DNA from: Candidatus Omnitrophota bacterium
Lineage (GTDB): Bacteria; Omnitrophota; Gorgyraeia; Zapsychrales; Zapsychraceae
Length of the DNA: 64,000 bases
Reading direction: 5' to 3'
Assembly: GCA_020053475.1 (NCBI GenBank)
Contig: JAGVNC010000084.1
Location: forward strand, 4,201-68,200
The translations under genes and the position numbers were made by a program. Below are positions 3,772 through 52,010 of this stretch, piece by piece; within the stretch, counting starts at the first letter, position 1, and each line of letters starts with the position of its first letter. The notes below the pieces were generated by a model. That model saw only the letters and a program-made list of their open reading frames with translations, was not told where the DNA came from and did no database searches.

Positions 3772-3893
3772 AAATCCAAAATCCTAAACTCTAAATTCCA
3801 AATAAACTCAAAATTCAAAATACAAAACATCATTTGTCTTTTGGATTTTAGATTTATTTAGGATTTAATGTTTTGAGTTTAGGGTTTTATTAA
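3772..3893. repeat. Family-A intergenic hairpin repeat, copy 2 (divergent eno / ftsH-like spacer)
   Basis: aaatccaaaatcctaaactctaaattccaaataaactcaaaattcaaaatacaaaacatcatttg / tcttttggattttagatttatttaggatttaatgttttgagtttagggtttt. Confidence 0.6.
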
Positions 3894-3919
3894 ATATTTC
3901 TTTAGAAAGGCCACGGGAC

Positions 3920-36600: not shown

Positions 36601-39600
36601 GCGCGTCCGCTCCTGGTCGCCAAAGGTAAGCACCGGCGCACTGGCCGAGGCCGTGTAGACACTGGGATTGCTGCCGTAACTGTAAGAGAACGGCGTGGGG
36701 CCGGTTGAGCCGCCGGTGTAGAAGGCCACCGTATCCCCCCACGCCGTGCCTCCATTAAAGGAGGAGCGTACATCAATCCAGGGGCTGCCACGGTAGAATC
36801 GGAACGCCTGCCACGCGAGCCCTCCGGGCTTGGCGCAAGTGACCTCCACGACGACTGGTCCACTGGCCGTCACCGAACAGGCGGCATCGGTGACGGTGCG
36901 ATCAAAGATGGCGGTGCCAGGCCCTGTCCATGTGGTATTGGTCAACATGCCCAGCGACCCATCCGAATCCGGAGCGTTTTCATAATCCCACCCGATGAGC
37001 CCTTGCGTGAGGGAAAACGGTTTGTACACGAGTTCGTGGATGACGCCGCCGGCATGGTCTAGCCAAGCTTTCACCACCGCATTTTCGATGGTACAGTCTG
37101 CGCTGACACAATCGCCGGTGTGCACCAGATCGGAACTGTACGTCGGGGCGCCTTGATCGGTGGTGGCGTAGTAGATCCCGTACGCCACCGGCGTGCCAGC
37201 GGGACGCGTGGCCAGGAAGACCAGGCGGGTGCTCTGATACGTCGTGCCGACCAGCGTCGACTCATACGTTTGCGAAGGAATTTCTTGGCCGCCGGCGCCA
37301 CAGGCCGCATCGACGACCCGTAAGGAATCTTTGAAGGGCGCCTCGGTCCAGACCGAGGCATCCAACATGAGGTCCACCGGTTCCGACTCATAGGCCAGGG
37401 GGGAGGCCGTATCTAATGTCACTGTGAAACACTTCGGAAACGCCGGATTCCACCAGCCGGGTTGTTGCACATCTTGTTCATCTTCATGCCATTCTTCGGC
37501 GGTATACACGAGCGGGTCCTGCTGTGCGTCCGTGGCGCCGCTGCAAACCACATCGATGGTCCCGGAAAACAGCCCGGTGCAATTGCCGTCATTACACTGC
37601 ATCGCGGTCGGCGGTGTCGGGGGGGTGTTCTGTTGGCACGCCAACGTACAGTCTTGCGTGCCGGCCATCACGCCTTCACAGGCAGGGTCAGCTGTACAAC
37701 CCGCAGCATACAGCGACGACCGACAGATCGGCGCGTTGTCTTCTCCGGTACAGATGGCGGAACACGTATCGCTAAAGTAGGTCTTCCCGACGGCGCATCC
37801 CGGAAGATCGCTGCCAGGAAACACCTGATCGCAGGACGCATCCGCACCGCACGCTGCGGCACAAATTTCCGCCACATCATCTCCGCTACCTCCCTGCCAG
37901 TCGCATTGGAAGATTGCAAGCGATGAGCACGCGTCCTGTTCTTTTTCATCACAGTATTGCGGAGCCCCACAGGTGCTCTCGGCCGACAGGACACAATCCG
38001 TACCGGTCACTTCGCAGGCCCGTTCGTTGAACGAGCCGCCGTGTTCACACGCATCTTCATGCGGCGTGGTTTCATCGCACGACGGGGGAGCCCCGAATGC
38101 CTCTTCGCAACTGCCGCCACCGCTACACGTCATCGTGGTGCCAGCACATTGCAGTGACGATTCGAGTTCGCCATTGCGGCAGGCTTCCCCATACGTGTTG
38201 CACGACCCATCCGAGCATGTCTGTCCTGTCGGAGATGCCTCCACGCAATTGCCACCATTGACAGAGCACGCGGCTCCGCAACAGAATCCATTTTTCGCAG
38301 GAACCCCAAGACCGCAGTCGCCGTCGTTGCAATCCACAAATCCATCACAATCATTGTCAACACCGTCGTTGCACAGTTCTGCTTGGAGACAGGAGACGCA
38401 CACGTTACTCAGCGGATTGCTGTCTGGTTTCTTGCAGTAATTGCCCGGGCCGCAGTCCGCGTCCGCCCCGCAGTTCAGCACCAGATAGTTCTCACTATGC
38501 TCGCCAACGTCGAACTGGCCGTTCTCGTTCGTGTCCCAGTACTCCCACAGCTTGCCCCCGTAGAACCCGTACCCGTAGGGATTCCCGGCCGGGTAATTGG
38601 AGAGGCACAGGATGTCGGGGAAGCCGATCTCGTTCACGGGGCCCGTGTACGTCTTCGTGACCGTCACCGCGTTCTCGACCTTCTCGTCGCAGTCCCCGTC
38701 GTAGCAGCCGTAGGACATGGTCTGGGCGAAGTTCACCATGTCGCTCACGAGGTAGCCTGATTTCACCTCGCAGCGGAACCACACCTTGTACGTGTCGCCT
38801 GCGAGCATGTAGTGCTCCAGATAGCCGTCGTTGTCCACGTCCGCATGCTTCCACTGGTAATTGTTCGCGCAGTACGGGCCGTACTTTATGGTGTCGACGT
38901 ACCCGGAGTATGGCGGCTCGTTTACGACGATCGTCCAGTTGTAGCATTCGTTCTCATCGCCGCCGCAGATGTTCTCGTCGGTCTGCCCGTCGCAGTTGTT
39001 ATCCACACCGTCGTGCGGACACACTTCCGTTGTTGGACCCTGCCCTCCGGTGCACGGGCCCCACTGGCCGCTTACGCATGTCTGCGTGCCGAAGGAGCAT
39101 GCTCCTACATCTGTTCCACAGGGCTTGGTCTGACCGTTCACACAACTGCACCCTTCATCCGTGATCCCGTCACAATTATCATCGATGCCGTTGCAGAGTT
39201 CCTGCGCGCCGGGGGTGCCGGTGCTGCAGCTGGATTTGCATTGGGACGTCGTCGGATTGCACCCGTAGGCGCAGTCTTGGACCAATGTTTCCTGAAGAAT
39301 CGTGTCCTGAAGGGCGCAAATACCTTCCATTGGAATGGTCGAGCTGCAGCCATACTGGTACTGGGTGGTGAGCACATAGACATCGTCATTTTTGCAGTAC
39401 GGTGATGAGGAAAAACTGTAGTTTTGCGCTTCACACACTGTTTCGCAAGGATAATAGCCGCATGGGTTCAGTTGGCATGCCAGCCATCCTCCACTGATTT
39501 CACCGATTGCAAGAGCAGAGCAAAAGCCACAATTCAGGAGATCAAAGAACACTTTTAATCCGATCCCTTCTAACAGCATCGTCCCGTAAATCTTAAACGC

Positions 39601-40608
39601 CTTGGCTTTGTTAAGAAGGTCCGGAATCTGCTTGACGAGTTCGCCCAGATCTGCGGCATTTTGAATGAGGCTGGCCGCATCATAAATGTCGGTCCCTTGC
39701 CCACACTTCCCTAAGATGTTTTGCTCGACGAAATCGCTTAGTGTTTGAGAAAAATCTGCAGCCGTGTCGTAATCAACCACCGCGTTGAGTTGATATTGAA
39801 AATTTTGTAACCCATTCAAAATATCCTGTTTACTTTCGCAGACTGTCAGTGCGGCATCTTGCACTAATCCAGTCATATCTCCGAGTAAATACGTAATCGT
39901 ATGCACGGCAGGATTATAGGAAGGATCGGCTTGACCGTTGAACCACTGCGTAAGTGAGATGAACAGATCATACAGTTCATTCGATCCGGCGCCGCACGCA
40001 AAGGAGCAGGGATTGTGGCTATTAAACCAGTCAACGAAATAGCCAAAACACACCGCGCTATTGCAGTCCACTTGGCTTTTCTGGGTGCCAGCATCGGGCG
40101 GGGGGGTAACAACCCGTCGGCTTTTGATGTCCACATCAACTCGTCCCTGTGGTGAATACAATCGCAACAGCAGCGTGCCCTTGTCATCTTTGACCACATC
40201 ACACAAGGCGACCCCTGAGGTGCCTTGCGCCTTATTGTGATGCTGGATCAGATACATGCCGGAGAGTTGTTCTGAAAAGAAGAGCGCGACCGTCATGGTT
40301 GCTTCTGGCGTGTCGAGCTGCACCGCGCGTTGGGTAGGGCGGAATCCTAACTCTTGGGCATAGCGATAGGCATCGCGAACTTGCGGATCTTCGCGAAGGA
40401 ACGTCGTCACTTCATCTGCCGTGAGATGACGAACTGTTGCACCAGAGAGTGTCTGTGATGGAAAGGCCGTGGTGCCGCGGGGTGCCGGTTCTGTGTCAGA
40501 AGCCGCGAGTCGAGGAGAGGCCATAAGAAAAATGGCCACGACGAGCGTCACTGCGAGACACCGTGTTGAGGTAGGACATCGTGCTCCAGCTTGACAAATG
40601 GGGAGCAT
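33694..40608 (-). CDS. giant secreted cysteine-rich repeat protein (2304 aa). It has tandem chitobiase-C/Ig-like modules plus MopE-type C-x-DG-x-DNDCDG repeats
   Basis: Uninterrupted 6.9 kb ORF with ATG at 40608 and an N-terminal signal peptide. Two or more tandem ~190-aa repeats (NLPPVTS..QGWQS.DALVTLTCTD.GGAGCAT..YC.DQ.N.C.P...Y.AP..IS.EGT.YLR). Repeated ELCNDGVDNDCDG / CNGIDDNCDGITDEGC / HDGVDNNCDGQTDEN motifs and dense Cys. GC and third-position GC are markedly higher than neighbouring genes. Confidence 0.8.
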   Translation of the reverse strand: MLPICQAGARCPTSTRCLAVTLVVAIFLMASPRLAASDTEPAPRGTTAFPSQTLSGATVRHLTADEVTTFLREDPQVRDAYRYAQELGFRPTQRAVQLDTPEATMTVALFFSEQLSGMYLIQHHNKAQGTSGVALCDVVKDDKGTLLLRLYSPQGRVDVDIKSRRVVTPPPDAGTQKSQVDCNSAVCFGYFVDWFNSHNPCSFACGAGSNELYDLFISLTQWFNGQADPSYNPAVHTITYLLGDMTGLVQDAALTVCESKQDILNGLQNFQYQLNAVVDYDTAADFSQTLSDFVEQNILGKCGQGTDIYDAASLIQNAADLGELVKQIPDLLNKAKAFKIYGTMLLEGIGLKVFFDLLNCGFCSALAIGEISGGWLACQLNPCGYYPCETVCEAQNYSFSSSPYCKNDDVYVLTTQYQYGCSSTIPMEGICALQDTILQETLVQDCAYGCNPTTSQCKSSCSTGTPGAQELCNGIDDNCDGITDEGCSCVNGQTKPCGTDVGACSFGTQTCVSGQWGPCTGGQGPTTEVCPHDGVDNNCDGQTDENICGGDENECYNWTIVVNEPPYSGYVDTIKYGPYCANNYQWKHADVDNDGYLEHYMLAGDTYKVWFRCEVKSGYLVSDMVNFAQTMSYGCYDGDCDEKVENAVTVTKTYTGPVNEIGFPDILCLSNYPAGNPYGYGFYGGKLWEYWDTNENGQFDVGEHSENYLVLNCGADADCGPGNYCKKPDSNPLSNVCVSCLQAELCNDGVDNDCDGFVDCNDGDCGLGVPAKNGFCCGAACSVNGGNCVEASPTGQTCSDGSCNTYGEACRNGELESSLQCAGTTMTCSGGGSCEEAFGAPPSCDETTPHEDACEHGGSFNERACEVTGTDCVLSAESTCGAPQYCDEKEQDACSSLAIFQCDWQGGSGDDVAEICAAACGADASCDQVFPGSDLPGCAVGKTYFSDTCSAICTGEDNAPICRSSLYAAGCTADPACEGVMAGTQDCTLACQQNTPPTPPTAMQCNDGNCTGLFSGTIDVVCSGATDAQQDPLVYTAEEWHEDEQDVQQPGWWNPAFPKCFTVTLDTASPLAYESEPVDLMLDASVWTEAPFKDSLRVVDAACGAGGQEIPSQTYESTLVGTTYQSTRLVFLATRPAGTPVAYGIYYATTDQGAPTYSSDLVHTGDCVSADCTIENAVVKAWLDHAGGVIHELVYKPFSLTQGLIGWDYENAPDSDGSLGMLTNTTWTGPGTAIFDRTVTDAACSVTASGPVVVEVTCAKPGGLAWQAFRFYRGSPWIDVRSSFNGGTAWGDTVAFYTGGSTGPTPFSYSYGSNPSVYTASASAPVLTFGDQERTRVAISKSESNLSLEQVLAMTYASQLPHPLGVSNNGGQPSFGGTWYPLSVQPFPSGTIHPWRLIFTTGSLEQAMGPQSVEAYDRFVAPLVPTFKAWTPIGTHPAGGSVLWDTSAFDAIENVHLRCVASAEGQQSQPLVSSGTLTIDNLPPVTSGVFPQGWQSMDALVTLTCTDSGGAGCATIDYCVDQENACLPLTPYQAPVLISNEGTHYLRIQAKDNAGNLETIQSHIVLLDKTPPSLVIESPTNNSVYPLADLPVVYEAADALSGIQSCWYTLDDGMAQTLPACEHTILQQLSPGPHNLTIGASDVLGHETATTVAFTIDNLPPVTSASVPQGWQSTDALVTLTCTDAGGAGCATTLYCLDQNNSCVPFLTYSAPFFISTEGTNYLRFHSQDIVNNSETIQVASIALDITPPAITLESPKDITYAALPIPLSYTVTDAFSGVASCWYTLDESPPQALPSCAPTTLQVTAGPHSLTLFANDAVGHPAFTSVTFTLNTPPTIPTSLSCNGAVCKGTFFESVALACSGSSDSPGDLLMYDVEASLGTWQSCRTVTFTDPLPQPIPRPATPVFLDLSMFGGQANAIRVIDAPCGQGGNEVPSYASLLQGTITFLADIQGKTNYAIYYGNSGASLPTYPGSIIANDNYLSWAPQTDISLNCELSASIGRVTCNHQYPTGYVFNTAYPGAAGPAVALSFYADGWHTFDFTLQESSATYAFWRAVAKQGTGWAAEIHAWSNAKSPLLRIIRTGPPITLNEVRFFDTRYYNPSFDTWISTSMDGTLASVLIPGFATMQVGWPPLSGYWSSTTGEALLFLPGPDTAAKLDHTAKGFCLSGPASSCNYALTNSTAITMLPGETLTLFLEDFPTFQLDTPAPAFERALAAAVPPAIEIGEEVYEVYGGDWNLIGTHSAGEAVVWNLNTLSEKAQALLRCRAIDTVGAASPYYTHDTPITVTPSTITPKSPPIPTKTRL

Positions 40609-40740
40609 TACAACGCCTCTAAATCTTTGGGGTTAATCCGCCACTTCCCAATCTTAGTAGCGCGGATGTGTTTTTCCCGAATAAGTTTACGAACTCTGTA
40701 TTCAGTTAACCCAATCTGTTTAGCAACCTGCTCTCTACAG
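40609..40740 (-). pseudogene. start-less excisionase/HTH_17-like DNA-binding ORF abutting the giant gene (TAATG stop/start overlap)
   Basis: Minus-strand translation between an in-frame TAG and TAA reads GIFNCREQVAKQIGLTEYRVRKLIREKHIRATKIGKWRINPKDLEAL. This has the Xis/MerR-type helix-turn-helix-wing pattern. There is no ATG/GTG/TTG in frame. Confidence 0.4.
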
Positions 40741-40970
40741 TTAAATATCCCCTAAGCAATATAATATAGCCTTTATTTTAGATTGTTTAACATGATTTCA
40801 CATCATACCACATTTAAAATTTTATTAACAATCAATTCTTCCCTGGCATCATGGAATGGTTTTTCTTTATTTCCTATCTACTCAATCCATTCCGGCTTAA
40901 TTTTCCAATCGCCTGTTGGGAAAACTTTTTCCGTTGTCAACCATATCATTTGGGGATCCTTTCGACAGCG

Positions 40971-41489
40971 CTATAGCCCTACTTTCAACCCATACATCTT
41001 AATCAATTCCAGAAAGGCTTCGGCGTTGCCCTTGGCGTCGTCAACCGGATTGTGTGTGTGCTTGGTTTTGCGTAAATGCTTAAAATTTTTGGAGGTATCC
41101 CTTACCAACCCTTTATAAAGCGAACCTAAATTCATCGATGAATGGCCAAAAGGGTTCTTGCCAAGAAAATGATGGAAATACCAATTAATAAACTGCCAGT
41201 CAAAACCATTATTGTCGGATATGAATATCGGCCGCCCTTTTATATTGTCAGCCAGCCATTTATCGAAAGATTCCATGACAGTTTTGGAGTTGTCGAAGTT
41301 CAATGTTTCTTCCCGGCTGAATCCCGAAACCTTTAATGCCTCCGGCTCCCATTTTCCCGAAATCGGTTTTAACTTTTTATAGAAAGTCCTTGATAGCGAC
41401 GGCTCAACAATAATTGCTCCAAAGCAAACCATCGAATAATCGCCCGGGATAGGGCCGTCGGCTTCAATATCGACAATGACGTAGCTCAT
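40971..41489 (-). CDS. stand-alone DEDDh 3-prime-5-prime exonuclease (DnaQ-like fold)
   Basis: Exo I VIVDIEADG, Exo II FISDNNGFDWQF, Exo III HTHNPVDDAKGNAEAF; 172 aa. Confidence 0.65.
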   Translation of the reverse strand: MSYVIVDIEADGPIPGDYSMVCFGAIIVEPSLSRTFYKKLKPISGKWEPEALKVSGFSREETLNFDNSKTVMESFDKWLADNIKGRPIFISDNNGFDWQFINWYFHHFLGKNPFGHSSMNLGSLYKGLVRDTSKNFKHLRKTKHTHNPVDDAKGNAEAFLELIKMYGLKVGL

Positions 41490-41595
41490 AATATCTCAGT
41501 TCAAGTTATGTAAGTTTCTTGTAGCCGTTACCATACATAAAAATGCACGAATGTTACAGAAAATGGAATGTTCATGCGTTGAAGGCTGTGTTTCC

Positions 41596-42534
41596 TTATC
41601 CCCACGGTCCCGGGGCTTTCCATTCGCCTGGTATGTTGGCTTTATCGTTGATGGCCAATATGACCGGCTCAAGAAACTCGTTTATTTTCTGCATGATCGC
41701 GGGAAAATGATCGGTGATCTTTTTTTCCCTGATTTTGCGCAGGTAGGCCTGCCATTGTTTCTGCCTGTTTTTATCTTCGAAAAACTCCCCCGTAAAAACC
41801 ACCGGATTTTCCGGCAATGGTGTTTCGCGCCTTGAAAACGCAGCCTGCACGGCCTTAAAGAGAACTTTCCCGGTGAAATTATCGGAAAGAGCAAGGGAAT
41901 AAATATCGTAGAAATCCTTCATGCGGCTGTTCACGAAACTTAATTTGATCATGGCCTCGAACTTTTCCGCGATCATGCTTTCCAGCGAGTAGACCTTTAA
42001 CCGGGGATGCCGGTCCTCCAGGATAGTCGGGAAATCCATCTCAAGCGGTTGAGGAACAATGTCGTCTCCGAAGCCCACATCGATTTGTAATATTTTTCGC
42101 GCCTTTCCTAGAGTTGCCTTGATTTTCAGCCTTATGCCATGATACTCTGCTCCTTCTTTTATGTCTTCTGAATGTACGGATCCGGGATCAAAGATTATCC
42201 CGTCAGCGTATTCAATGCGGGCGATGTCCTGAATGATCGCTTCCAGGCCACGGTGTGAATTCTTAATGCGCTGCGCCAGGAAATCAATGTCGATGGTGGG
42301 CCGTGAATGAGGAACGTCATGACAGACCAGCAGAAGCCCTCCTTTGAGCACAAAAGAGCCGGAATGCTTGCTGACAGACAGACGGTATAAAAACCTCTCC
42401 TGCATGTAGCGTAATAAAAGGGCATCAAAGTCGATGCCCTGGGATCTGGCCAGATTCAATAATTTTGCCTTTATGGAGGCCGGTTTATTTTTGATGTTTT
42501 CTATCATCGTTGTTAAATCATGGCGTTCAGCCAC
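41596..42534 (-). CDS. AbiEii/AbiGii-family nucleotidyltransferase toxin (type IV TA)
   Basis: FLYRLS...FVLKGGLLLVCHDVPHSRPTIDIDFL GG-NTase motif; 312 aa. Paralogous to the partial gene at 1-931. Confidence 0.7.
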   Translation of the reverse strand: MAERHDLTTMIENIKNKPASIKAKLLNLARSQGIDFDALLLRYMQERFLYRLSVSKHSGSFVLKGGLLLVCHDVPHSRPTIDIDFLAQRIKNSHRGLEAIIQDIARIEYADGIIFDPGSVHSEDIKEGAEYHGIRLKIKATLGKARKILQIDVGFGDDIVPQPLEMDFPTILEDRHPRLKVYSLESMIAEKFEAMIKLSFVNSRMKDFYDIYSLALSDNFTGKVLFKAVQAAFSRRETPLPENPVVFTGEFFEDKNRQKQWQAYLRKIREKKITDHFPAIMQKINEFLEPVILAINDKANIPGEWKAPGPWG

Positions 42535-43118
42535 GTCTGAAGCACCGGTTTGACGCGGCAGACGGCGGCAAGTTCCAGGAGTTTTTCAATATTGCGGTTC
42601 TTCCGTTTCAGGTATTCCGTCAGGGCCTCTTTGGCCGTGTCCACTCCAAGTTTGTTTCGATAGCGAAAGCAGTCGCAGATCGTTTTCTCCGGAGAATAAA
42701 TCCTGATCTTCTGATTTTTGACCATGATGGTCTCTACACCGGCATGAAACTGTTTTTCGGAAAAATAGTAGAATTCAACCGGCGGGTATTTAATTTTGGG
42801 ACGCCAGGCTTTCCGATGAATGGCCACAGAAACAACCGAAGGATTGAACGTTGTCAGCTGGTAATAGGAAAGCGCGGAAAGCAGGCAAATAACCCCTTCC
42901 GGAACGGCCTGTGCAATGTCAATAAAACTTTGGTGAGAAACAACAGAAACTTCACTCAGTCTGTAAAGTCCAGTTTTGACTTTATTGATAATCCCTTCGT
43001 CAACCATGGCTCGGATATCTCGCGGGTGCACTCCTTTGGCAAGAAGTTCGCCTGTTCGCGCGTAGCCTTTATGGGCATTGAATATTTGTCGGATTTTCTG
43101 ATATTTCTGATTTGTCAT
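42513..43118 (-). CDS. AbiEi-family antitoxin
   Basis: 201 aa, immediately upstream of and overlapping AbiEii by 22 nt. N-terminal wHTH-like region. Confidence 0.6.
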   Translation of the reverse strand: MTNQKYQKIRQIFNAHKGYARTGELLAKGVHPRDIRAMVDEGIINKVKTGLYRLSEVSVVSHQSFIDIAQAVPEGVICLLSALSYYQLTTFNPSVVSVAIHRKAWRPKIKYPPVEFYYFSEKQFHAGVETIMVKNQKIRIYSPEKTICDCFRYRNKLGVDTAKEALTEYLKRKNRNIEKLLELAAVCRVKPVLQTWLNAMI

Positions 43119-43221
43119 GACATTTTTATATGGATAAACTAATAGGCGGATTATAACATATGCCTATGAAACTATCCAGTGTAAATTTTTGTTTGGGGCC
43201 CGATAACGCAACCCTCTCTCT

Positions 43222-44547
43222 TTACTTAACCTCCCAAAGGTGTTTGCGGGTTTCTTCCACAACAACCCCGCTTAAGACAAGCAAGGAGATCAAATTGGGA
43301 ATGGCCATGCAGGCATTGGTAATATCCGCCAACGACCAGACAATCGGCAATGACAAAACCGATCCGGCCATGACCGCCCCCACCCAAAGATAGCGGTAAG
43401 GCTTAATGGCTTTGCTGCCAAAGAGATATTCACAGGCCTTTTCGCCGTAATACGACCATCCCAAAATCGTGGCAATCACAAACGTAAAAAGGCTCACGCT
43501 TAAGACAATAGGCCCGATGACAGGGATGTCATCAAACGCCGCTTTGGCCAAACCAGCCCCATTTAAGCCTAATGTCCAGGCCCCGGAATTCACATACACC
43601 AAACCTGTCAGGGCACACATGACGACCGTGTCCCAAAACGTCCCCGTCGATGAAACGAGCGCTTGACGCACAGGGTTTTTGGTCTGGGCCGCTGCCGCCA
43701 CAATCGCGCCACTTCCCATCCCTGATTCGTTGGAGAAAAGTCCACGGGCGACACCATAACGGACGGCTTCCTTCATCGTGGCCCCCAAAAATCCGCCGAT
43801 CGCGGCCTGGCCCGTAAAAGCGCTTTGAAAAATCAACACAATGGCTTGGGGAAGCGTATCAAATTTTAAAACCAAGAGAATCAGGCATCCTAAAATATTA
43901 AAGATGGCCATGAAAGGAACCAGCGTTTCACACGCTCGGGAAATCGATTTGATGCCTCCCAAAATCACAGCGCCCGTTAACACCATGATGACTAGGCCCG
44001 TGATCCAATGGGGGATATGAAACGTTTCATACACTAGCACAGCCGCCGAATTGGCTTGGACCATATTGCCGATGCCGATGGCTGTGATGGCCGTAAAAAC
44101 CGCAAACAAAACACCCAGCCATTTGCAATTCATCCCCTTCTCCAACACGTACATGGGGCCCCCGGCCATGGCTCCATCCTTGGTCTTTACGCGATATTTC
44201 GATGATAATAAAGCTTCGGCGTATTTCGTCGAGATGCCAAACACGCCTGTAATCCATAACCAAAAAATGGCACCCGGCCCGCCGGAAGCCACCGCAGTGG
44301 CCACACCGACAATATTCCCTGCGCCAATCGTCGCCGCCAACGCCGTCGTCAATGCCCCGAATTGGCTGACATCCCCTTCCCCTTCTTTGGATCGTTCGAA
44401 GGAAATCTTAATGGCCTTGCCGATGTAACGTTGAATAAATCTTAAACGAAATGTTAAAAAAAGATGTGTCCCGCATAAAATCGCCAACGTCCAGGGTCCC
44501 CAAACCCAATTGCTTAGTTCCCCTAGAAATTTTTCCAACTCATGCAT
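43222..44547 (-). CDS. alanine/glycine:cation symporter (AGCS family)
   Basis: ATG at 44547 is preceded by GGGAGG. MHELEKFLGELSNWVWGPWTLAILCGTHLFLTFRL is the family N-terminus. The ORF track's longer frame (to 44634) reads through the upstream hairpin module. Confidence 0.8.
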   Translation of the reverse strand: MHELEKFLGELSNWVWGPWTLAILCGTHLFLTFRLRFIQRYIGKAIKISFERSKEGEGDVSQFGALTTALAATIGAGNIVGVATAVASGGPGAIFWLWITGVFGISTKYAEALLSSKYRVKTKDGAMAGGPMYVLEKGMNCKWLGVLFAVFTAITAIGIGNMVQANSAAVLVYETFHIPHWITGLVIMVLTGAVILGGIKSISRACETLVPFMAIFNILGCLILLVLKFDTLPQAIVLIFQSAFTGQAAIGGFLGATMKEAVRYGVARGLFSNESGMGSGAIVAAAAQTKNPVRQALVSSTGTFWDTVVMCALTGLVYVNSGAWTLGLNGAGLAKAAFDDIPVIGPIVLSVSLFTFVIATILGWSYYGEKACEYLFGSKAIKPYRYLWVGAVMAGSVLSLPIVWSLADITNACMAIPNLISLLVLSGVVVEETRKHLWEVK

Positions 44548-46141
44548 AGGGCCTCCCTGTCCCGCCAAGGCGGGACTTAAATGATCCGTCATTGATCTTA
44601 AAAATGGATGCAGGTTTATTATACCAAGAGCCAAAAAATCTTTTGAGGAATAATATCAAAATTAATAGCCCTGTCCCACCCAGATAATAAATGACCACTT
44701 GCCAAAAATTGACACTCTTAATCAAGAAGTAGGCCCCGGGGAGTTGATCCATCAAATAGATGCTGGCGACAACCACGTTTAACAGTAATTTGAGGCAAAG
44801 GGCAAACATCTGAGCACAATATCCCGAGATAAAGGCGAACGCTAACAGTCCTAATCCTAACGCCACGACCGCACTCATCAGAGGAATCACAATTAAATTG
44901 GCCACAAAAATGATGGGAGTAACGATTTGAAAATAATAGGCAATGAATCCCGCTAACCCTAACCACACGGATAAAGAAATGCCCAAGGCATTGATCAGCC
45001 ATTTGGCATATTGACTGGAAAAGGAAGACGCAATCAATTCGAGCCGGGGCCCTACTAAAATAATAATCAGAACAGCCAAAAAAGATAACTGAAACCCAAT
45101 ATCAAACAAATGAAAAGGATTGATCAATAATAACAGCAGTCCGGCTAATCCTAATGTATTGAACGAATCCGTTGGCCTCTCTAGCAGAAACCCCAAGAGA
45201 AAAACAATGATCATGATTGTCGCCCGTACCACCGAAGGCGGCGATCCTGTTAAGACACAATAAACAATCAATAATCCAATGGCCAGCCAAAGCTGTGTTT
45301 TGCGGCCGATCGGGAATATTTTGAGAATCAACAGGAATAATCCCGCGACAATGCCGACATTAAATCCGCTGATGGCCAAGACATGCACGGTCCCTGTATG
45401 TTCAAACAAGTCCATAATATGCGTCGGGATGGCCGCCCTGTCTCCCAAAATCATCGCACTCATCAAGCCCGCCTCGGCAGGAGACAGATATTGGTCAAAA
45501 ACGCTTGTCAGATGATCCCTCCAGCGAAAAATAGCGGCCAGCCATTGATATTGATATCCCGTTTTCAAAATTTCGACCGACGCTTGGCGCCCGACGCTTA
45601 AAATCCAATAGACGCCCTTCATTTCCAAATAATCCGTGTAGGAAAAATTCCCATCGGAGAAATTATACGGGCGGTGCAACTTGCCTTCGATACGCAAAAG
45701 GTCACCGCAGTGAATCTCTTTGTCCTGAAACACATTGACCAACACTTTTCCGCTCTTTGGGCGCCAGCCCCAGGGCGTTTTAATTTCTTCAACCTGCAGC
45801 GTAAACACTTTTTTCTTCTTGTTAAAAAAAGACCGTGTTTCGACGTCCGTGGCCACCGTGCCTTTGAGCGTTGTTAATTTTCCTGAATAATATCGCGCCA
45901 CGTGATGAATATGGTCTCGCGGGAGAACCTCAACATTTTGTGCATAAAGAAAACTCACGCCGATCAAGGCTGCGCCCAGGCAAACATTCCAACAAATGGG
46001 CCGATGCCGGCCCAACATGGCAACGAAAAGAAACAAACAGCTTAACGCCACGACGCCGGAGAATGAGGCAGAAATGTAACGATGACAAATAATCCCAATC
46101 GCCCAAAACATAAAAATTCCGACAAAAGGCCGTTGGGTCAT
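44540..46141 (-). CDS. comEC: ComEC/Rec2-family DNA internalisation channel (competence domain only, no metallo-beta-lactamase domain)
   Basis: DUF4131-like N-terminus, then the competence domain with HVLAISGFNVGIV; 533 aa. ATGA overlap with comEA. Confidence 0.75.
   Translation of the reverse strand: MTQRPFVGIFMFWAIGIICHRYISASFSGVVALSCLFLFVAMLGRHRPICWNVCLGAALIGVSFLYAQNVEVLPRDHIHHVARYYSGKLTTLKGTVATDVETRSFFNKKKKVFTLQVEEIKTPWGWRPKSGKVLVNVFQDKEIHCGDLLRIEGKLHRPYNFSDGNFSYTDYLEMKGVYWILSVGRQASVEILKTGYQYQWLAAIFRWRDHLTSVFDQYLSPAEAGLMSAMILGDRAAIPTHIMDLFEHTGTVHVLAISGFNVGIVAGLFLLILKIFPIGRKTQLWLAIGLLIVYCVLTGSPPSVVRATIMIIVFLLGFLLERPTDSFNTLGLAGLLLLLINPFHLFDIGFQLSFLAVLIIILVGPRLELIASSFSSQYAKWLINALGISLSVWLGLAGFIAYYFQIVTPIIFVANLIVIPLMSAVVALGLGLLAFAFISGYCAQMFALCLKLLLNVVVASIYLMDQLPGAYFLIKSVNFWQVVIYYLGGTGLLILILFLKRFFGSWYNKPASIFKINDGSFKSRLGGTGRPYA
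44552..44576 (-). promoter_or_regulatory. Family-C hairpin-plus-SD module upstream of the AGCS symporter start
   Basis: Minus strand reads GTCCCGCCTTGGCGGGACAGGGAGGCCCT-ATG. Confidence 0.4.
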
Positions 46142-46494
46142 GGCACTTTCCTCTTTTGGGAAATTTTTAAATAGGGAGCGAATCGTTGAAAATTCTTAGA
46201 CTTGATTCCTTTGATCGATTTGAGTTCTTCTAAGGACGTTAACGGGCCGTGGTCTTGGCGGTAACGAATGATTTGTTGGGCGCTGGAATCCCCGATAAAG
46301 GGAAGCGCGACCAACTCTTCCTGGGTGGCGCGGTTAATATCCACTTTTGGGTACAGGTGGTTGCCTTCAATGACACTAACAATGTTGCTCAGAAAAGGGT
46401 ATTTCTGCAGGGCATAGTGGAAGACCGATCCCGCGAGAACCACGGAGAGGAAAATCAACAACACTTTCTTTTCTTGGGACGTTAAATGAAACAT
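46138..46494 (-). CDS. comEA: ComEA-like helix-hairpin-helix DNA-binding protein
   Basis: N-terminal TM, then VDINRATQEELVALPFIGDSSAQQIIRYRQDHGPLTSLEELKSIKGI (tandem HhH). Confidence 0.75.
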   Translation of the reverse strand: MFHLTSQEKKVLLIFLSVVLAGSVFHYALQKYPFLSNIVSVIEGNHLYPKVDINRATQEELVALPFIGDSSAQQIIRYRQDHGPLTSLEELKSIKGIKSKNFQRFAPYLKISQKRKVP

Positions 46495-46607: not shown

Positions 46608-46700
46608 GTGTCCGGCCGGACACTTTTACACTACAATTGGGGCCGCGCGGCCCCAATTGTAGTGTAAACGTTGCCCGCCGGCGAGAATTGTAGTGTAAAT
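46608..46700. promoter_or_regulatory. operator-like palindrome cluster upstream of comEA: a 16-bp and a perfect 40-bp palindrome plus a third AATTGTAGTGTAAA half-site
   Basis: gtgtccggccggacac, then tacactacaattggggccgcgcggccccaattgtagtgta (perfect), then gagaattgtagtgtaaatt. Located 110-190 nt upstream of the comEA ATG. Confidence 0.4.
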
Positions 46701-46735
46701 TATTTTTCATATGCTCCTTAACTTGCATTGATTTT

Positions 46736-48376
46736 TCATCTCTCTCCATTTTTAAGGACGACAAGGCCTTCCTTATTGGTATAAGCAAGAAAATACTTTG
46801 AATCTTTCGCCTTAAGATATTTTCTGAAGAGGAACTCTTCTGCTAAGCCCTTCTTAATATTTTCATCTTTAGCCTGACCAATATAAATCTGCACGGGACG
46901 CTTAGCTTCATTTTCAACGATATCAAAGGAAAAATCCGGTTCCTTCTTATGCTGATTCTTAAAGCGTTCCAATTGGGAAACCAATTGTCCCCAAGAACGG
47001 TATTTTGCAGACATCTCACGATTAAACTGAAAACTCATCCAAGCATTTAAAATGATACTCATAAGTAAGATAGTAAAAAGAAGGCTTTTCTGATGATCAA
47101 ATCTCTTGATCTCTATATTTTTGTAGGAAGATGTAAAAGTGATTAAAAACATGGTTAAAAAAAGAGCTAAAGGATAAAAATGATGCAATTGATACGTCAA
47201 ATAAACGAAAGACCTATCAGATACTCTCCCCAATAAAACAAATAAAAGGTAACACCAAAAAAGGATAAAACTTAATGACCGAATGGGATAAAGAGGACCC
47301 TTCTTGAAGGTCTCTAATTCTGAATTCTTGTTGAGTAAACTAAAACGTACTATTCTATAAAGACCTATCAAACAAAGACAAACCAACAAAAGATTAAGGC
47401 TGCTCAAAAAAGGATTGGCAATCAGGTCATATACAAATTTTTCCCGCGTCGGCAAATAAAGCATTGGTTTGTCACCGGAATTGATTTGAATAAAAACAGG
47501 GAAAATAAGCGATTGAATAAAGAAATTTAACGTAGCGAATAGCTGCTTTATCAGAATAAACCCGTCAAACTTTATCGCCTTGCTAAAAATTTCAACACGC
47601 GAATGAACAAAATAATCCATAAAATTGGCAACAAAATAACTGACCGCAGGGATACAGAGTAGGGAAACGGATTTTCGCAGGCCATGCCCTCTACTCTCCT
47701 CTTTGCTTACACTTTTCAACAGAAACATGACAAACACAATGTTGACCAAAATAGAAAATTCATAAGTCAAACACCCCAATGTAAGGAATAAAACCGCTAA
47801 CGATAAATGCCGTTGAGCATTTTGGGGGAAGTGCAGAAAAGAAATAAAATGCTGCAAAGATTGAAGAATAAGAATCAAAGCCAGAAGATATCCGTTTACA
47901 TGATGCCAAATGACCATCTCTTGGCTTAGAGCCGTGACCGAAAAATTTAATAAAAATAGCACCAAGATAAGATTTGGAGCTATAGCCTTAAATAAACGTA
48001 ACAGCTGGCCAATCAAAATCAGATGAAAGATTATCCCCAGCATCTGCCAATAGATAAAGTTATAACCAAAAAATAATTCTTCAAGGCTTAACAACAAAAA
48101 GAAAATAGGCCGGAAAAGAAGTTGGTCACCACCCGACAAAAACATGTTGCGATTGTAGGAGAGACTGAAGGCAAGTTTATCGAAAAAATGATCGAAAGCT
48201 GACGTTTGGATAAGATAAGTAAGCTGATCTGCCCGAGCGACATGAAACAAAGAAGGGAAGTAAACCACGCAATTGGCTAACAGAAGAATTACAAGACCAA
48301 TCCAATATTTATTTTGGGACTCACTATTATCTTTGTCAGAATTTATTTGTATCTTATCTCCTCCCATAAGCTCCAT
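46736..48376 (-). CDS. polytopic membrane protein, third divergent TMTC/PMT-like GT-C paralog (no TPR tail), AT-rich
   Basis: 546 aa, about 12 TM helices, and loop motifs ARADQ and GGDQLLFRPIFFLL echoing the YRPL motif of the 8640 and 10667 paralogs. Codon usage is visibly more AT-rich than neighbours. Confidence 0.35.
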   Translation of the reverse strand: MELMGGDKIQINSDKDNSESQNKYWIGLVILLLANCVVYFPSLFHVARADQLTYLIQTSAFDHFFDKLAFSLSYNRNMFLSGGDQLLFRPIFFLLLSLEELFFGYNFIYWQMLGIIFHLILIGQLLRLFKAIAPNLILVLFLLNFSVTALSQEMVIWHHVNGYLLALILILQSLQHFISFLHFPQNAQRHLSLAVLFLTLGCLTYEFSILVNIVFVMFLLKSVSKEESRGHGLRKSVSLLCIPAVSYFVANFMDYFVHSRVEIFSKAIKFDGFILIKQLFATLNFFIQSLIFPVFIQINSGDKPMLYLPTREKFVYDLIANPFLSSLNLLLVCLCLIGLYRIVRFSLLNKNSELETFKKGPLYPIRSLSFILFWCYLLFVLLGRVSDRSFVYLTYQLHHFYPLALFLTMFLITFTSSYKNIEIKRFDHQKSLLFTILLMSIILNAWMSFQFNREMSAKYRSWGQLVSQLERFKNQHKKEPDFSFDIVENEAKRPVQIYIGQAKDENIKKGLAEEFLFRKYLKAKDSKYFLAYTNKEGLVVLKNGER

Positions 48377-48647
48377 ATGATGGTTATATTAGCCTTGATG
48401 ATATAGGGATTGCCGACAGTTGTCCAAGTGGTAGGCGTTGTAATATTCGTAGTAACATCGGTGGCGAGAGCTAATGGACAAAAGATAAAGAGAAAAAAGG
48501 TTAAAAGTCCGAAAACAATCTCGCGCTTTCGCTCAAAACCTTTTCTAATTGAATTAAGGAATGAATACATAGTTTTCCGCAAAAATAAAGCCAAAGAAAG
48601 GAATATTGTGGCTATATTCCGAAGAACCTGAATGGGGTAGTTTAAGT

Positions 48648-48760
48648 TTACCCTAGAATCACAAAGTTAATCAGCTTCCCGGGGACATAAATAAACTTTT
48701 TGACGGGCTTATGCTGAACAAATTCCTGGATCTTGGCATCCCCCAAGGCGAAATAAACGG
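48648..48760 (-). repeat. ghost copy of the leuS 3-prime end (direct repeat / att-like scar)
   Basis: Encodes [36 protein letters not shown] versus the LeuS C-terminus ...[32 protein letters not shown]. About 80 percent nucleotide identity with 49524-49636. Confidence 0.6.
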
Positions 48761-48842
48761 GTCAACTCCCTTTCCCTCGCTCTTCATTATACAATATACC
48801 CCAAGTCATGAGGGTTGGCAAAAAAATAAATGGGCCCCAGGC

Positions 48843-49358
48843 TTACGCATGGAACCCAATCCTGCCCTTGGGCTTCTCATCTTCAGCCATCAGCCGGCGG
48901 ATGGCGTCGAAGATACGCTGGACCTCTTCATCTTTTTCATCCATCCTTCTTTCGAGCTGGCCTAATTTCTTGGCCAAGGCATTGTGGCCGCTTAAAATCT
49001 TCCTTAATTTCACAAACGCCCTCATAATGGCGATGTTGACCTGCACCGCGCGCTCACTGTTCAAAACACTGGAAAGCATGAGGATCCCGTGTTCCGTGAA
49101 AGCGAAAGGATCTTTCCGCAACCCCATCTTCTCCTTATTGGATATAACAATTTGTGATATCCAATTTTGAGTCTCTGCCTTGGTGAGCTGGAACATAAAA
49201 TCACACGGGAACCTGTTCTTATTTCTTTTCACAGCCTGATTGAGCGCCCCTGTCTCCACCCCATACAATTCGGCCAGATCTCTATCAAGCATGACCTTTT
49301 GCCCACGGATCAGAAAGATCTTTTGCTGGATCACCTGTACGTCGACGCCTGTACGCAT
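48843..49358 (-). CDS. ORF6N/KilA-N-like domain protein (phage antirepressor-type)
   Basis: IRGQKVMLDRDLAELYGVETGALNQAVKRNKNRFPCDFMFQLTKAE is the ORF6N signature, followed by a coiled-coil tail; 171 aa. Confidence 0.6.
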   Translation of the reverse strand: MRTGVDVQVIQQKIFLIRGQKVMLDRDLAELYGVETGALNQAVKRNKNRFPCDFMFQLTKAETQNWISQIVISNKEKMGLRKDPFAFTEHGILMLSSVLNSERAVQVNIAIMRAFVKLRKILSGHNALAKKLGQLERRMDEKDEEVQRIFDAIRRLMAEDEKPKGRIGFHA

Positions 49359-49523
49359 AAAAAATCCCCCTTCAGTTTATAGAACTTAACCAAGGGGGAT
49401 GAAATTGAACGACGCTATCTTATGATTTAGCGATTAATTTGTCAACCGGAGAATCTTCCCGTGTCAAACCAAAATTAAAATGTCCTAATTTTTTAGAGGA
49501 GTTGGGACACGTAACTTTATTTA

Positions 49524-52010
49524 CTAAACAACCAGATTGATCAGCTTCCCTGGGACGTAGATGAATTTCTTGACGGGCTTATGCTGGACAAATTCCTGGA
49601 TTTTGGCGTCGTTGAGGGCGAGTGTTTTTAATTCTTCCTCTTGAATGTCGACGGAAACATCGAATTTTCCGCGCAGCTTCCCGTTGACCTGGACAACCAC
49701 CAGGATCTTGTCTTGCTTAAGGGCACTCTCTTCGTATGTCGGCCAGGCCGCGCGTACAATACTCTCCTCTTTCCCGCCGATTGTTTGCCACAATTCCTCG
49801 GCTAAATGCGGAGCGATCGGGGAAAGCAATCGAACAATGGTTTGAATGGTTCGATTGATCAAAATTTTCTTTTCTGTCCCTTTCTGATTCACGGCGCGGT
49901 ATCGGTCGGCGCTGTTCATCAAGATCATTAAGTTACTCACAACGGTATTGAATTTATAATTATCAAAATCTTCCGAAATCTTTTTAATCATCGAGTTACG
50001 TTCCCGCTCAATCGTTTTATCAGCCTCTGTTAACTGATAAGCGTGATCCAATTTTTCTCCAAGGGAAGGATTATATTCGCCGGTGAAATGAGAGACACGA
50101 TTTAAGAACCTCCACGCCCCATCAAGCCCATCGTCATTCCATTCCAATTGATCTTCCGGCGGTGCCGCAAACAAAATAAATAAACGCAACACATCCGCCC
50201 CATATTTCTCGATAATTTCATCCGGATCAACCGTGTTCCCCTTTGATTTCGACATGACTTCTCCATTTTTTAAGACCATGCCTTGGGTCAACAGCCGGAC
50301 AAACGGTTCGTCGACGTTGACCAATCCGATGTCTTTAAGAAATTTGGTAAAAAAGCGTGAATACAAAAGATGCAGGATCGCGTGCTCGATCCCGCCGACA
50401 TATTGATCGACGGGCATCCAATAGGCCGCTTCTTGTTTGTCGAAAATTTTGGCTGCATCCTTCGGCGAACAAAACCGCAAATAATACCACGAAGAATCAA
50501 AGAACGTGGCCATGGTGTCCGTTTCGCGCCGGGCTTTTCCTTTGCACTTAGGACAATTCACGTTGACGAATTCGGCGCAATGCTTAAGCGGGCTTCCTCC
50601 TTCACCGGTGATTTTGATCTTCTGCGGTAAAACGACCGGCAGATCTTTCTCGGGCACCGGCACTGTCCCGCATTTGGGGCAATCAATCATCGGGATCGGT
50701 GTTCCCCAATAACGTTGACGGGAAATCAACCAATCACGTAAACGCCAATAGGTTGTAATTTTGCCGATTGTTGTTTGTTCCATCCATTCGGCGATCTTTT
50801 GTTTGGCCTCTTCATTAGGCAAACCATTAAACTGGGCGGAATTAACCAGCGGCCCCTGATCTTCATATGCTCTTTGAAGATCCTCGACGCACAGATTAGG
50901 GGTTTGCGGATTTTGGATGACGATTCGCATCGGCAAATTGTTTTCTTTCGCAAAAAGAAAATCACGTTGATCGTGGGCCGGGACAGCCATAATAGCGCCC
51001 GTTCCGTAGTCCATCAGCACATAATCGGCGATCCAAATAGGAATCGTTTCCTTATTGACCGGATTGATCGCATATGCGCCGCTAAACATCCCTTCTTTCT
51101 TCAAATCGCCGGACATCCGTAAACTTTTAGGCCGCGCCATTGTCCTTTCAACAAACGCTCTCACTGTTTTTTCCTGCAGTGTCCCCTTGATGAGTTTTTC
51201 CACCAGAGGATGTTCCGGAGCCAACACTACATACGTCGCCCCAAAAATCGTGTCCGGCCTCGTTGTAAAAACCGTGATGACATCCTTAGAATTGTTGACG
51301 TTAAAATAAATTTCCGCGCCGAAACTTTTTCCGATCCAGTTTTCCTGCATCGCTTTGACGCGGCTCGGCCAGTGACTCAATGTTGTTAAGTCTTTCAATA
51401 ATGCGTCGTTGTAATGGGTGATCTTTAAATACCATTGATCCAAATCTTTTTGCACGACGGTCGTTTTGCACCGCCAGCATTCGCCTTGAATGACCTCTTC
51501 GTTGGCGAGTGTCGTTTCACAGTTGGGGCACCAATTCACCGATGAAATTTTTTTATAGGCCAGGCCTTTCTCGAACATCTTCAAAAAAATCCATTGGTTC
51601 CATTTGTAATATTCTTGGCCGCATGTGGCGATCTCGCGGCCCCAGTCGTAGGAAAACCCCATTCTCTTTAACCCTGTCCGCATTTCCTCAATACAAGCAT
51701 ACGTCCATTGGGCGGGATCGATGTCACGCTTGATGGCGGCATTTTCGGCGGGTTGGCCAAAGGCGTCATAGCCCATGGGATGAAGCACATTAAAGCCTTG
51801 CATCATTTTGAAACGGGCGATGACGTCGGCGATCGTGTAATTGCGGACATGCCCCATGTGAATTTTTCCGGAAGGATAAGGGAACATTTCCAAGACGTAA
51901 TATTTTTTCTTATCCTTGCGCATCGTGGCTTTAAAGATGTGCTTATTGTGCCAAATCTTCTGCCACTTCTCTTCGATCTCTTTGATATTTTCGATATGGT
52001 AGGCCATCAA
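49524..52010 (-). CDS. leuS: leucyl-tRNA synthetase
   Basis: 828 aa with HMGH, KMSKS (VMSKSKGN) and an editing domain. Confidence 0.95.

Follow-up and report, generated by a model that had tools for sequence, protein, structure and literature searches.

How does a single gene come to lie between the working end of a housekeeping gene and a second, diverged copy of that same end? The question is raised by the leuS locus in a stretch of 64,000 nucleotides of contig JAGVNC010000084.1, from a Candidatus Omnitrophota bacterium; we call the whole stretch the window and use its coordinates throughout, and the other loci compared with it carry L numbers. Downstream of leuS stands a gene of the ORF6N family, the only gene between the two leuS-end copies, and behind it follows the second copy, which we name the ghost. 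The reading that we favour, with a probability of roughly three in four, is that the ORF6N gene was imported as a cassette together with a foreign leuS end, which now serves as the end of leuS, and that the ghost is the native end. The locus clearly exemplifies a scar that recurs around a very common candidate defence gene. The argument turns on four features.

49524..52010, minus strand: leuS, leucine--tRNA ligase of 828 aa, from the list of open reading frames (ORFs); the anchor gene of the insertion.
49527..49636, minus strand: working leuS 3' end (copy 1), delimited by the direct repeat and by codon comparison.
48843..49358, minus strand: ORF6N gene of 171 aa, with matches to Pfam PF10543, PADLOC PDC-S05 and a PHROG anti-repressor family.
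48648..48760, minus strand: ghost leuS 3' end (copy 2), delimited by the repeat, tblastn and codon comparison, with its stop codon at 48648-48650.

The identity of the anchor gene is given by LeuS homologues from Omnitrophota in the protein database, annotated as leucine--tRNA ligase at 65-71% identity. Its terminal 95-110 nt or so are found again 870 nt downstream. A repeat search returns them as a single direct-repeat family (49537-49621 against 48667-48751; 85 nt, 82% identity, spacing 870), blastn-short between the flanks aligns 68 nt at 88% identity (E 5e-16, and 2.8e-15 against the whole window), and tblastn of the leuS end against the ghost aligns 32 aa at 87.5% identity (E 8e-16). An earlier note on this DNA had described just such a recurrence, at about 80% identity and with a near-identical peptide, and the alignments bear it out. 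The leuS-end repeat has exactly two copies in the 64-kb window; a third was looked for at the far edge of the low-GC block that follows the ghost, and none was found there.

The way in which the two copies differ is more telling than their likeness. A 25-codon core (DAKIQ..KLIN) carries 11 nucleotide differences yet encodes the same amino acids in both copies, an all-synonymous outcome that was reached in 0 of 300,000 random placements of 11 substitutions. The mismatches are mostly T/C and A/G, fall at third codon positions and are not adenine-specific. As the earlier note had argued, this is unlike what a random duplication would leave, and the codons indicate that both copies diverged under purifying selection. 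The ghost has neither start codon nor ribosome-binding site and is preceded by an in-frame stop 8 codons upstream, and it retains an intact alternative C-terminus with its stop codon. Its GC content at third codon positions (GC3), counted from its codons, is about 0.62, which is genome-like and unlike the adjacent low-GC block. LeuS relatives at about 70% identity vary at many of the repeat residues and end in tails such as NIVV, NLVI, NIVVK, NIVAG and similar, each before the stop codon; since the tails of both copies fall within this range, both look like natural gene ends. Judged by their sequences, the two copies are best taken as diverged working leuS ends from two lineages, not as a decaying local duplication. 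Because both diverged as functional leuS ends, the arrangement reads as the scar of an insertion rather than as a local duplication.

Relatives that have the same gene order show the site empty. The closest LeuS relative in the protein database has 71% identity, and the best match of a metagenome scan with the LeuS C-terminus has 60%. In L133 (70% LeuS identity) the order is gidA, cysK, ..., thiH, thiG, thiS, speH, leuS, comEA, comEC, bamD, lptE, holA, rpsT, murJ, and the window has this order plus two extra blocks. In L133, L134, L087 and L089 comEA starts 45-130 nt past the leuS stop, and the leuS-comEA junction contains no ORF6N gene, no second leuS end and no counterpart of a 546-aa ORF that lies downstream of the ghost in the window; these relatives share only 60-71% LeuS identity with the window, and the comparison is one of gene order, not of nucleotides. 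Since leuS is directly followed by comEA in four syntenic relatives, the 3 kb that separate the two genes in the window are lineage-specific. The site that the earlier note had taken to be occupied by an insertion is thus vacant in all four.

The scar is not confined to this genome. We compared the 600 nt upstream with the 600 nt downstream of each ORF6N homologue, with control positions displaced by 1,750 nt within these loci, and found direct repeats of at least 40 bits at 6 of 62 ORF6N loci and at 0 of 119 shifted positions (Fisher p about 0.001); one of the six repeat-flanked loci is a tandem ORF6N paralogue. Repeats at ORF6N loci are of three classes: 1) a ghost of the 3' end of the upstream gene (the window, L065, L044 and L139); 2) non-coding or promoter duplications (L001, L012, L031 and L062); and 3) tandem ORF6N paralogues (L018, L053, L071 and L130). 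In the second class, the non-coding repeats of L001 (3899-3960/4563-4620) and L012 (337-377/1263-1303) have a downstream copy with the promoter-like sequence of the next gene, so that the insertion there duplicated a promoter region, not a gene end. As for the third class, arrays of two or three diverged ORF6N paralogues between housekeeping genes are frequent, as in L053, L071, L018 and L130. Among the gene-end ghosts, L065 is from Limisphaerales and its upstream gene is the N-half of carB; L139 involves the same gene in an independent event; L044 is from Leptospiria. The L065 ghost starts 1 nt after the ORF6N stop and differs from the working end by 18 synonymous codon differences and 3 amino-acid changes, and non-coding DNA separates the ORF from the repeat copies by only 6 nt and about 1 nt. 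In L044, a complete chromosome (record OZ241995.1), 126 nt are 98% identical between the copies, after which each runs into a tail of the same length but diverged sequence. A further candidate sign of mobility, an identical ORF6N protein (P0078) in two contexts, was rejected: the DNA is the same and the gene calls differ.

Codon usage tells which copy looks native. Each copy was compared with the resident gene body or with neighbouring genes, and the log-likelihood difference favours the ghost as the resident copy weakly in the window (1.7-2.4), moderately in L044 (4.0) and strongly in L065 (18.9). GC3 in L044 is 0.8 in the tail of the working end and 0.3 in that of the ghost, for a genome value of 0.39; in L065 it is 0.79 in the gene body, 0.74 in the ghost, 0.60 in the working end and 0.56 in the ORF6N gene. 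All three tests make the ghost look like the resident copy and the working end like an import. By analogy with the better resolved loci, we infer that 49527-49636 was imported along with the ORF6N gene and that 48648-48760 is the displaced resident end. The proposal of the earlier note that the incoming element brought its own copy of the 3' end of its target is supported by these values; the part of that proposal that concerns the route, recombination between att sites, fares less well, as L065 shows.

L065 can be compared with L137 (99% amino-acid identity), L138 and L139. Over the stretch 840-420 nt ahead of the stop of its carB N-half, it is 88-100% identical in nucleotides to these three; over the final 420 nt the identity drops to 70-83%, with lower GC3, and rare codons increase from about codon -94. 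L137, L138 and L139 are mutually 83-95% identical until the last 120 nt or so. Because identity and GC3 fall there, the imported tract of L065 is taken to run from about -420 nt through the ORF6N stop, and it begins some 300 nt upstream of the 126-nt duplication. If the left crossover was homologous, the tract is expected to exceed the repeat in this way. L137 has an empty site and a different downstream gene. L139 has an ORF6N gene only 72% identical in nucleotides to that of L065 and a shorter ghost, of about 66 nt, after a 32-nt spacer, so that the junction positions of two independent insertions in carB-N differ (126 versus about 66 nt). In L138, where no ORF6N gene is present, this spacer recurs together with a ghost (3823-3925) 45 nt past the stop; spacer and ghost are homologous to the segment that follows ORF6N in L139 (4922-5025). 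Junctions that vary, a tract that outruns the repeat and a ghost that stands alone are not the pattern of a recombinase with a fixed core. Together they fit a crossover by homology in the conserved gene, combined with a right-hand join that was non-homologous. The last 120 nt or so of the carB N-half are the most divergent part of the gene among the four loci, which suggests, from the alignments, that this end has been repeatedly replaced.

How could such a scar have formed in the window? The 870-bp unit would be a horizontally acquired one-gene cassette, made of ORF6N (a candidate anti-phage gene of the PDC-S05 type) and its own promoter, which entered the leuS-comEA junction along with a foreign, orthologous leuS 3' end. 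The donor would have been a related genome in which ORF6N was already adjacent to leuS, and the left crossover would have occurred by homology inside leuS. The right end would have been attached within the resident leuS 3' end, some 110 nt ahead of its stop, which would put the right junction at about 48760. This join may have been illegitimate, facilitated by homology after DNA uptake; or a ghost carried by the donor may have paired with the resident leuS end. The imported end would now terminate leuS and the resident end, pushed downstream, would survive as the ghost, with the 82 nt from the ORF6N stop to the ghost being donor DNA. Once in place, the working end and the ghost could act as two homology arms to one conserved gene, allowing the unit to spread by ordinary RecA recombination: in principle, a donor having working end, cassette and ghost could insert it by double crossover into any related genome. 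Later on, ordinary homologous recombination could swap content between the working end and the ghost. For this homology-anchored, integrase-free route, which is argued by analogy, we see about even odds.

A number of points weigh against the import, the route or both. First, the codon test in the window is weak, and a rare-codon trace of the last 200 leuS codons shows no break. Second, the best LeuS relative has 71% identity, and the left boundary of the imported tract in the window cannot be mapped. Third, a single well-resolved parallel underlies the argument for the route, namely L065, which belongs to another phylum, and the history of that locus is not simple: its ghost is only 87%, not about 97%, identical to the gene end of L137, and it could have arisen by two successive events, an att-type insertion and then an allelic replacement. 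Fourth, a gene-end ghost occurs in only 3-4 of about 85 ORF6N loci. Finally, the scar may be general to horizontal insertion and not special to ORF6N; L138 points in this direction, and the survey covered ORF6N loci.

The nature of the cargo bears on the alternatives. The ORF6N protein matches the entire 86-position profile of PF10543 over residues 12-98 with 118.6 bits (gathering cut-off 27.8; E 1.5e-34), which confirms the family assignment that the earlier note had made for the sole gene between the copies. It matches three PADLOC PDC-S05 models (E 2.1e-58, 4.8e-58 and 1.8e-39) and, over its N-terminal domain, a PHROG anti-repressor family (E 5e-28). The N-terminal ORF6N DNA-binding domain is followed by a long C-terminal helix, and the model predicted by AlphaFold, at a mean pLDDT of 74, combines a small alpha/beta domain with a long helix. 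In a fold search with this model, all matches in the PDB had E values of at least 0.26 and none was a nuclease or recombinase fold; the nearest folds are the Ski/Dachshund and MarR winged-helix domains. As modelled, the protein is probably only a DNA binder. A PDC-S05 representative lowered the plating of phages T7, T5 and T4 in Escherichia coli (bioRxiv 10.1101/2024.09.26.614923). The matches to the PDC-S05 models make the window gene a candidate defence gene; the tested representative is described in that preprint as having a RhuM domain, whereas the window protein is the 171-aa form.

This 171-aa family is large, with at least 8,000 proteins at E of 1e-10 or below, and 598 of the first 600 candidate stretches in species-representative genomes, from many phyla, encode an ORF6N relative. 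Full-length homologues occur in only 4 of 50,697 phage records and 28 of 72,556 plasmid records, and because of this rarity 'prophage antirepressor remnant' is a poor description of the gene. The earlier note had seen a decayed island here, a view that is also hard to reconcile with the recurrence of the same one-gene architecture after different genes in different phyla, since repeated decay to exactly ORF6N is unlikely. On plasmid pTS1 of Treponema saccharophilum (L141) an ORF6N gene separates the methylase subunit of a type I restriction system from its specificity subunit, and on plasmid II of Legionella fallonii (L140) another is divergent from a tyrosine recombinase and adjoins an IS3 transposase; from these two loci it follows that the family occurs in both defence and integrative contexts. 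An ORF6N gene in an integrative module with a tyrosine recombinase is also described in bioRxiv 10.64898/2026.05.20.726742. Within the portions at hand of the literature that mentions ORF6N or PDC-S05, we found nothing on mobility, gene-end ghosts or the palindrome described below.

The spacers on either side of the gene carry signals of their own.

49359..49523, minus strand: spacer from the leuS stop to the ORF6N start, with a promoter-like site and a hairpin followed by a T-run.
48761..48842, minus strand: spacer from the ORF6N stop to the ghost, covered by the promoter scan and a motif search.

In the first, a promoter scan places a promoter-like TTGACA-17-TAAGAT (10/12 matches) at 49417-49445, ahead of ORF6N. 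RNA folding gives a stem-loop, AUCCCCCUUGG...CUGAAGGGGGAU at 49364-49400 on the minus strand, which is followed by a T-run (U-run) and ends 2 nt before the ORF6N start codon; it is predicted to overlap and sequester the ribosome-binding site (Shine-Dalgarno) of ORF6N, and it may terminate leuS, control translation, or do both. The second spacer has an outward promoter-like TTGCCA-17-TATATT at 48793-48821, reading toward the ghost, and a hairpin motif, GGGAAAGGGAGTTGACCCGTTTAT at 48753-48776, that abuts the 5' edge of the ghost. The motif (A)AAGGGAGTTGACCC(N)TTT is present in 6 copies in 5 kb of the Omnitrophota locus L026 (2130, 2716 and 2751 on the plus strand; 3611, 3714 and 3743 on the minus strand), three of which flank the ORF6N gene of that locus, and by its sequence the hairpin motif at the ghost edge looks like a repeated palindromic element. 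The idea that the motif GGGAGTTGACCC at this edge is a cassette end common to ORF6N loci was rejected, as it is a multi-copy repeat of L026. An Rfam search of 44-53 kb returned nothing at or above the gathering score and one sub-threshold chance match.

The alternative that survives best, though we hold it to be unlikely, is site-specific integration: a small non-autonomous element, or the remnant of an island or prophage, would have entered the leuS 3' end by means of a tyrosine or serine recombinase that acted in trans or has been lost, and the copies would be attL and attR. It is consistent with the direct repeats, with a working end that came in from outside, with a ghost of native look and with the vacant site of the relatives. 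It also agrees with the tyrosine recombinase beside ORF6N in L140, the integrative module with the same neighbourhood in the second preprint, and the match of the N-terminal domain to phage anti-repressor PHROGs. The unit, however, has only 870 bp, and no integrase, transposase or other recombinase was found between the repeats or elsewhere in the 64 kb, for which all ORFs of at least 120 aa were inspected and 23, including all those not placed by eye, were scanned with Pfam; the statement of the earlier note that no integrase is present thus holds for the whole window. Moreover, L065 leaves almost no non-coding DNA between the repeats and the ORF, its foreign tract of 420 nt far exceeds the 126-nt repeat, and the junctions differ between insertions, a test made on carB-N and not on leuS. 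Target genes vary between loci with the cargo being always the same single gene, and this gene is rare at full length in phage and plasmid records. These observations, along with the L138 ghost that stands without ORF6N, speak against the att-site mechanism that the earlier note had proposed. That mechanism is the less likely one; the underlying logic, with selected gene ends, an insertion and no integrase, was right.

Less probable still is a Campbell-type event, in which a circle made of one leuS-end copy and ORF6N, excised from a related genome through recombination of the repeats that flanked it, was integrated by a single RecA crossover in the resident leuS end. Repeats of 85-126 nt offer enough length for RecA, and the product would be exactly X-ORF6N-X' with copies of different lineage, which makes the scheme self-consistent and reversible. 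It predicts, however, that foreign sequence is restricted to the repeat, which L065 contradicts, and that the copies are reciprocal hybrids, whereas the L065 ghost is nearer to L137 in two of three sub-segments and essentially tied in the middle one. It leaves unexplained how new target genes would be reached, and a circular form is not known.

We give very little credit to the view that the ghost is functional, as the template repeat of a diversity-generating retroelement, as a small ORF or as a regulatory RNA, or that an assembly artefact joined two strains. The ghost shows no visible decay, and the promoter-like site of the second spacer reads into it. On the other side, it has no start codon or ribosome-binding site, it is preceded by an in-frame stop, and no Rfam match reaches the gathering score. 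The retroelement was rejected, given that no reverse transcriptase was found nearby in the same ORF inspection and Pfam scans and that the mismatches are third-position transitions of several kinds rather than adenine-specific. An integron gene cassette was rejected as well, the repeat being the coding end of leuS and not an attC site, with no integrase found. A k-mer misjoin would yield one hybrid copy, not two copies around unique DNA, and the same architecture is present in independent assemblies, including the complete chromosome of L044.

An origin in situ, by a long target-site or tandem duplication upon insertion of ORF6N with decay of the downstream copy, would give direct repeats around an inserted gene but is the least credible of all, since decay would bring non-synonymous changes where all 11 core differences are synonymous (which also contradicts a transposon-type target-site duplication with neutral decay), the ghost keeps its alternative C-terminus and stop, and in L065 and L044 the foreign codon usage is in the working copy and not in the ghost.

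One element of the ORF6N coding sequence deserves attention.

49137..49165, no strand assigned: 29-nt palindrome within the ORF6N gene, forming the codons for NWISQIVISN, found by the repeat search, with 13/14 arm positions paired.

It is the only palindrome of its type in the window and is built of 14-nt arms around one central base, with codons for NW-x-SQ-[IF]-V-x-SN. It recurs at the same position in ORF6N genes of L001, L007-L086, L120, L130, L135, L136 and L140-L142. Among 85 ORF6N genes, 83 have it in the same codon phase and 80 pair at least 11 of the 14 arm positions. In a gapless alignment of 83 distinct sequences, 92.1% of cells are paired, compared with 74.2% in shuffles (0/500 reach the observed value) and 30-42% with a slid partner. 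Ten of the 14 arm pairs have changed on both sides; one pair is GC in 41 sequences, TA in 35, CG in 4 and AT in 3, with no mismatch. Synonymous recoding of the same peptides gives 6.1-8.6 of 14 pairs, against 12.6 observed. These patterns indicate that the palindrome is maintained by compensatory changes. Because G.T (22) and A.C (19) mismatches are equally frequent, the constraint appears to act on the symmetry of the DNA rather than on an mRNA hairpin, a reading that the same counts do not favour. The encoded peptide varies in step with the palindrome (NWISQIVISN, SLRSQIVTLE, NLMFHFGTSS, ELVANCDRFK) and lies in a low-confidence loop of the AlphaFold model. The palindrome is kept in distant members of the family, of 33-39% identity and other domain architectures, one of which has the type I restriction genes hsdM and hsdS as its neighbours on either side.

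Solo palindromes, with a core CA[AT][AT][AT]TG and variable symmetric arms, stand 12-130 nt upstream of many ORF6N starts (L015, L024, L034, L038, L048, L058, L059, L061, L072, L076, L078 and L139), and in L135, which has the closest homologue, about 12 different palindromes fill the 620 nt upstream of ORF6N (1-620). These solo copies may be operators. The simplest reading of the in-gene copy, as far as its sequence tells, is likewise an operator for an ORF6N dimer; because the outer arms covary freely, a role that depends on structure is also possible. No link was found between the palindrome and the repeat junctions. The in-gene palindrome is a strong clue to the regulation or action of the ORF6N family, which is uncharacterised. 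A wider proposal would have the ORF6N/PDC-S05 genes be integrase-free, self-targeting mobile defence cassettes, which carry two overlapping arms matching the 3' end of a conserved host gene, one a working replacement and the other a ghost, and need RecA alone to enter any related genome in any downstream context, with the 29-bp in-gene palindrome and its solo copies as the cis element, be it an operator or a site of recombination or replication stalling; we regard this as doubtful.

The remainder of the lineage-specific region lies between the ghost and comEA.

46650..48640, minus strand: low-GC block (GC profile 0.31-0.39), directly downstream of the ghost stop.
48343-48594, minus strand: ORF fragment of 83 aa in the low-GC block.
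46736-48376, minus strand: multi-pass membrane ORF of 546 aa in the low-GC block.
46138..46494, minus strand: comEA (NCBIfam ComEA), which delimits the 3-kb lineage-specific insert region on its far side.

The 546-aa ORF has a GC3 of 0.38, versus 0.51-0.58 for other genes, and the ORFs of the block had no match in Pfam, PADLOC, PHROG or NCBIfam. The 83-aa ORF overlaps the 546-aa ORF and resembles an N-terminal fragment of a secreted protein of beta-helix type. The block is probably a separate, or earlier, acquisition at the same junction. The DNA-uptake genes comEA and comEC are both present (NCBIfam), and the nearest tRNA gene is at least 35 kb from the locus. The second block that is lineage-specific with respect to the synteny of L133 extends from about 33694 to 44634, between bamD and comEC, and contains a giant ORF of 2304 aa, an RNase T-type exonuclease (40971-41489), an AbiEii/AbiEi toxin-antitoxin defence pair (41596-43118) and a sodium:alanine symporter (43222-44634).

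How widespread single-gene anti-phage systems move without a mobility gene is poorly understood, and the locus with its parallels offers a readable scar. The imported end and the displaced native end point to recombination anchored in a conserved neighbour gene, and they suggest that the scar, in turn, can come to serve as a mobile pair of homology arms. If this is general, gene-end ghosts would be a cheap computational marker of recent integrase-free transfer of defence genes.

Several known systems resemble this arrangement in part. At icd of E. coli, e14 and phage 21, the nearest classical parallel, are elements of 15-40 kb with their own integrase and a fixed crossover core. As in the window, an incoming and mostly synonymous 3' end replaces that of a housekeeping gene and the original is left as a ghost; here, in contrast, the unit has 870 bp and one gene, no recombinase was found, and in L065 the tract exceeds the duplication and the junctions vary. 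The streptococcal cis-mobilisable and integrative mobilisable elements (CIMEs/IMEs) at the 3' ends of protein genes, which derive from integrative conjugative elements (ICEs) with known integrases and fixed att sites, are likewise short, lack an integrase and have direct repeats on both sides that take in a gene 3' end, but no such integrase partner or fixed site is seen here. We know of no prior description of a recurrent natural scar in which the end of a resident gene is left as a ghost beside one gene family. Homology-facilitated illegitimate recombination, described in naturally competent species such as Acinetobacter baylyi and Streptococcus pneumoniae and known mainly from laboratory assays, adds foreign genes by a one-sided homologous anchor and an illegitimate join, and the route that we favour corresponds to it; the presence of comEA and comEC in the window and the tract of L065 are in line with such a process. 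Finally, the minimal mobile elements of Neisseria are cassettes of one or a few genes between housekeeping genes, moved by transformation and flanking homology with no recombinase. They share with the ORF6N loci the presence or absence among relatives and the lack of a recombinase of their own, and they differ in having no duplication of the flanking gene end, whereas here both homology arms can derive from one gene.

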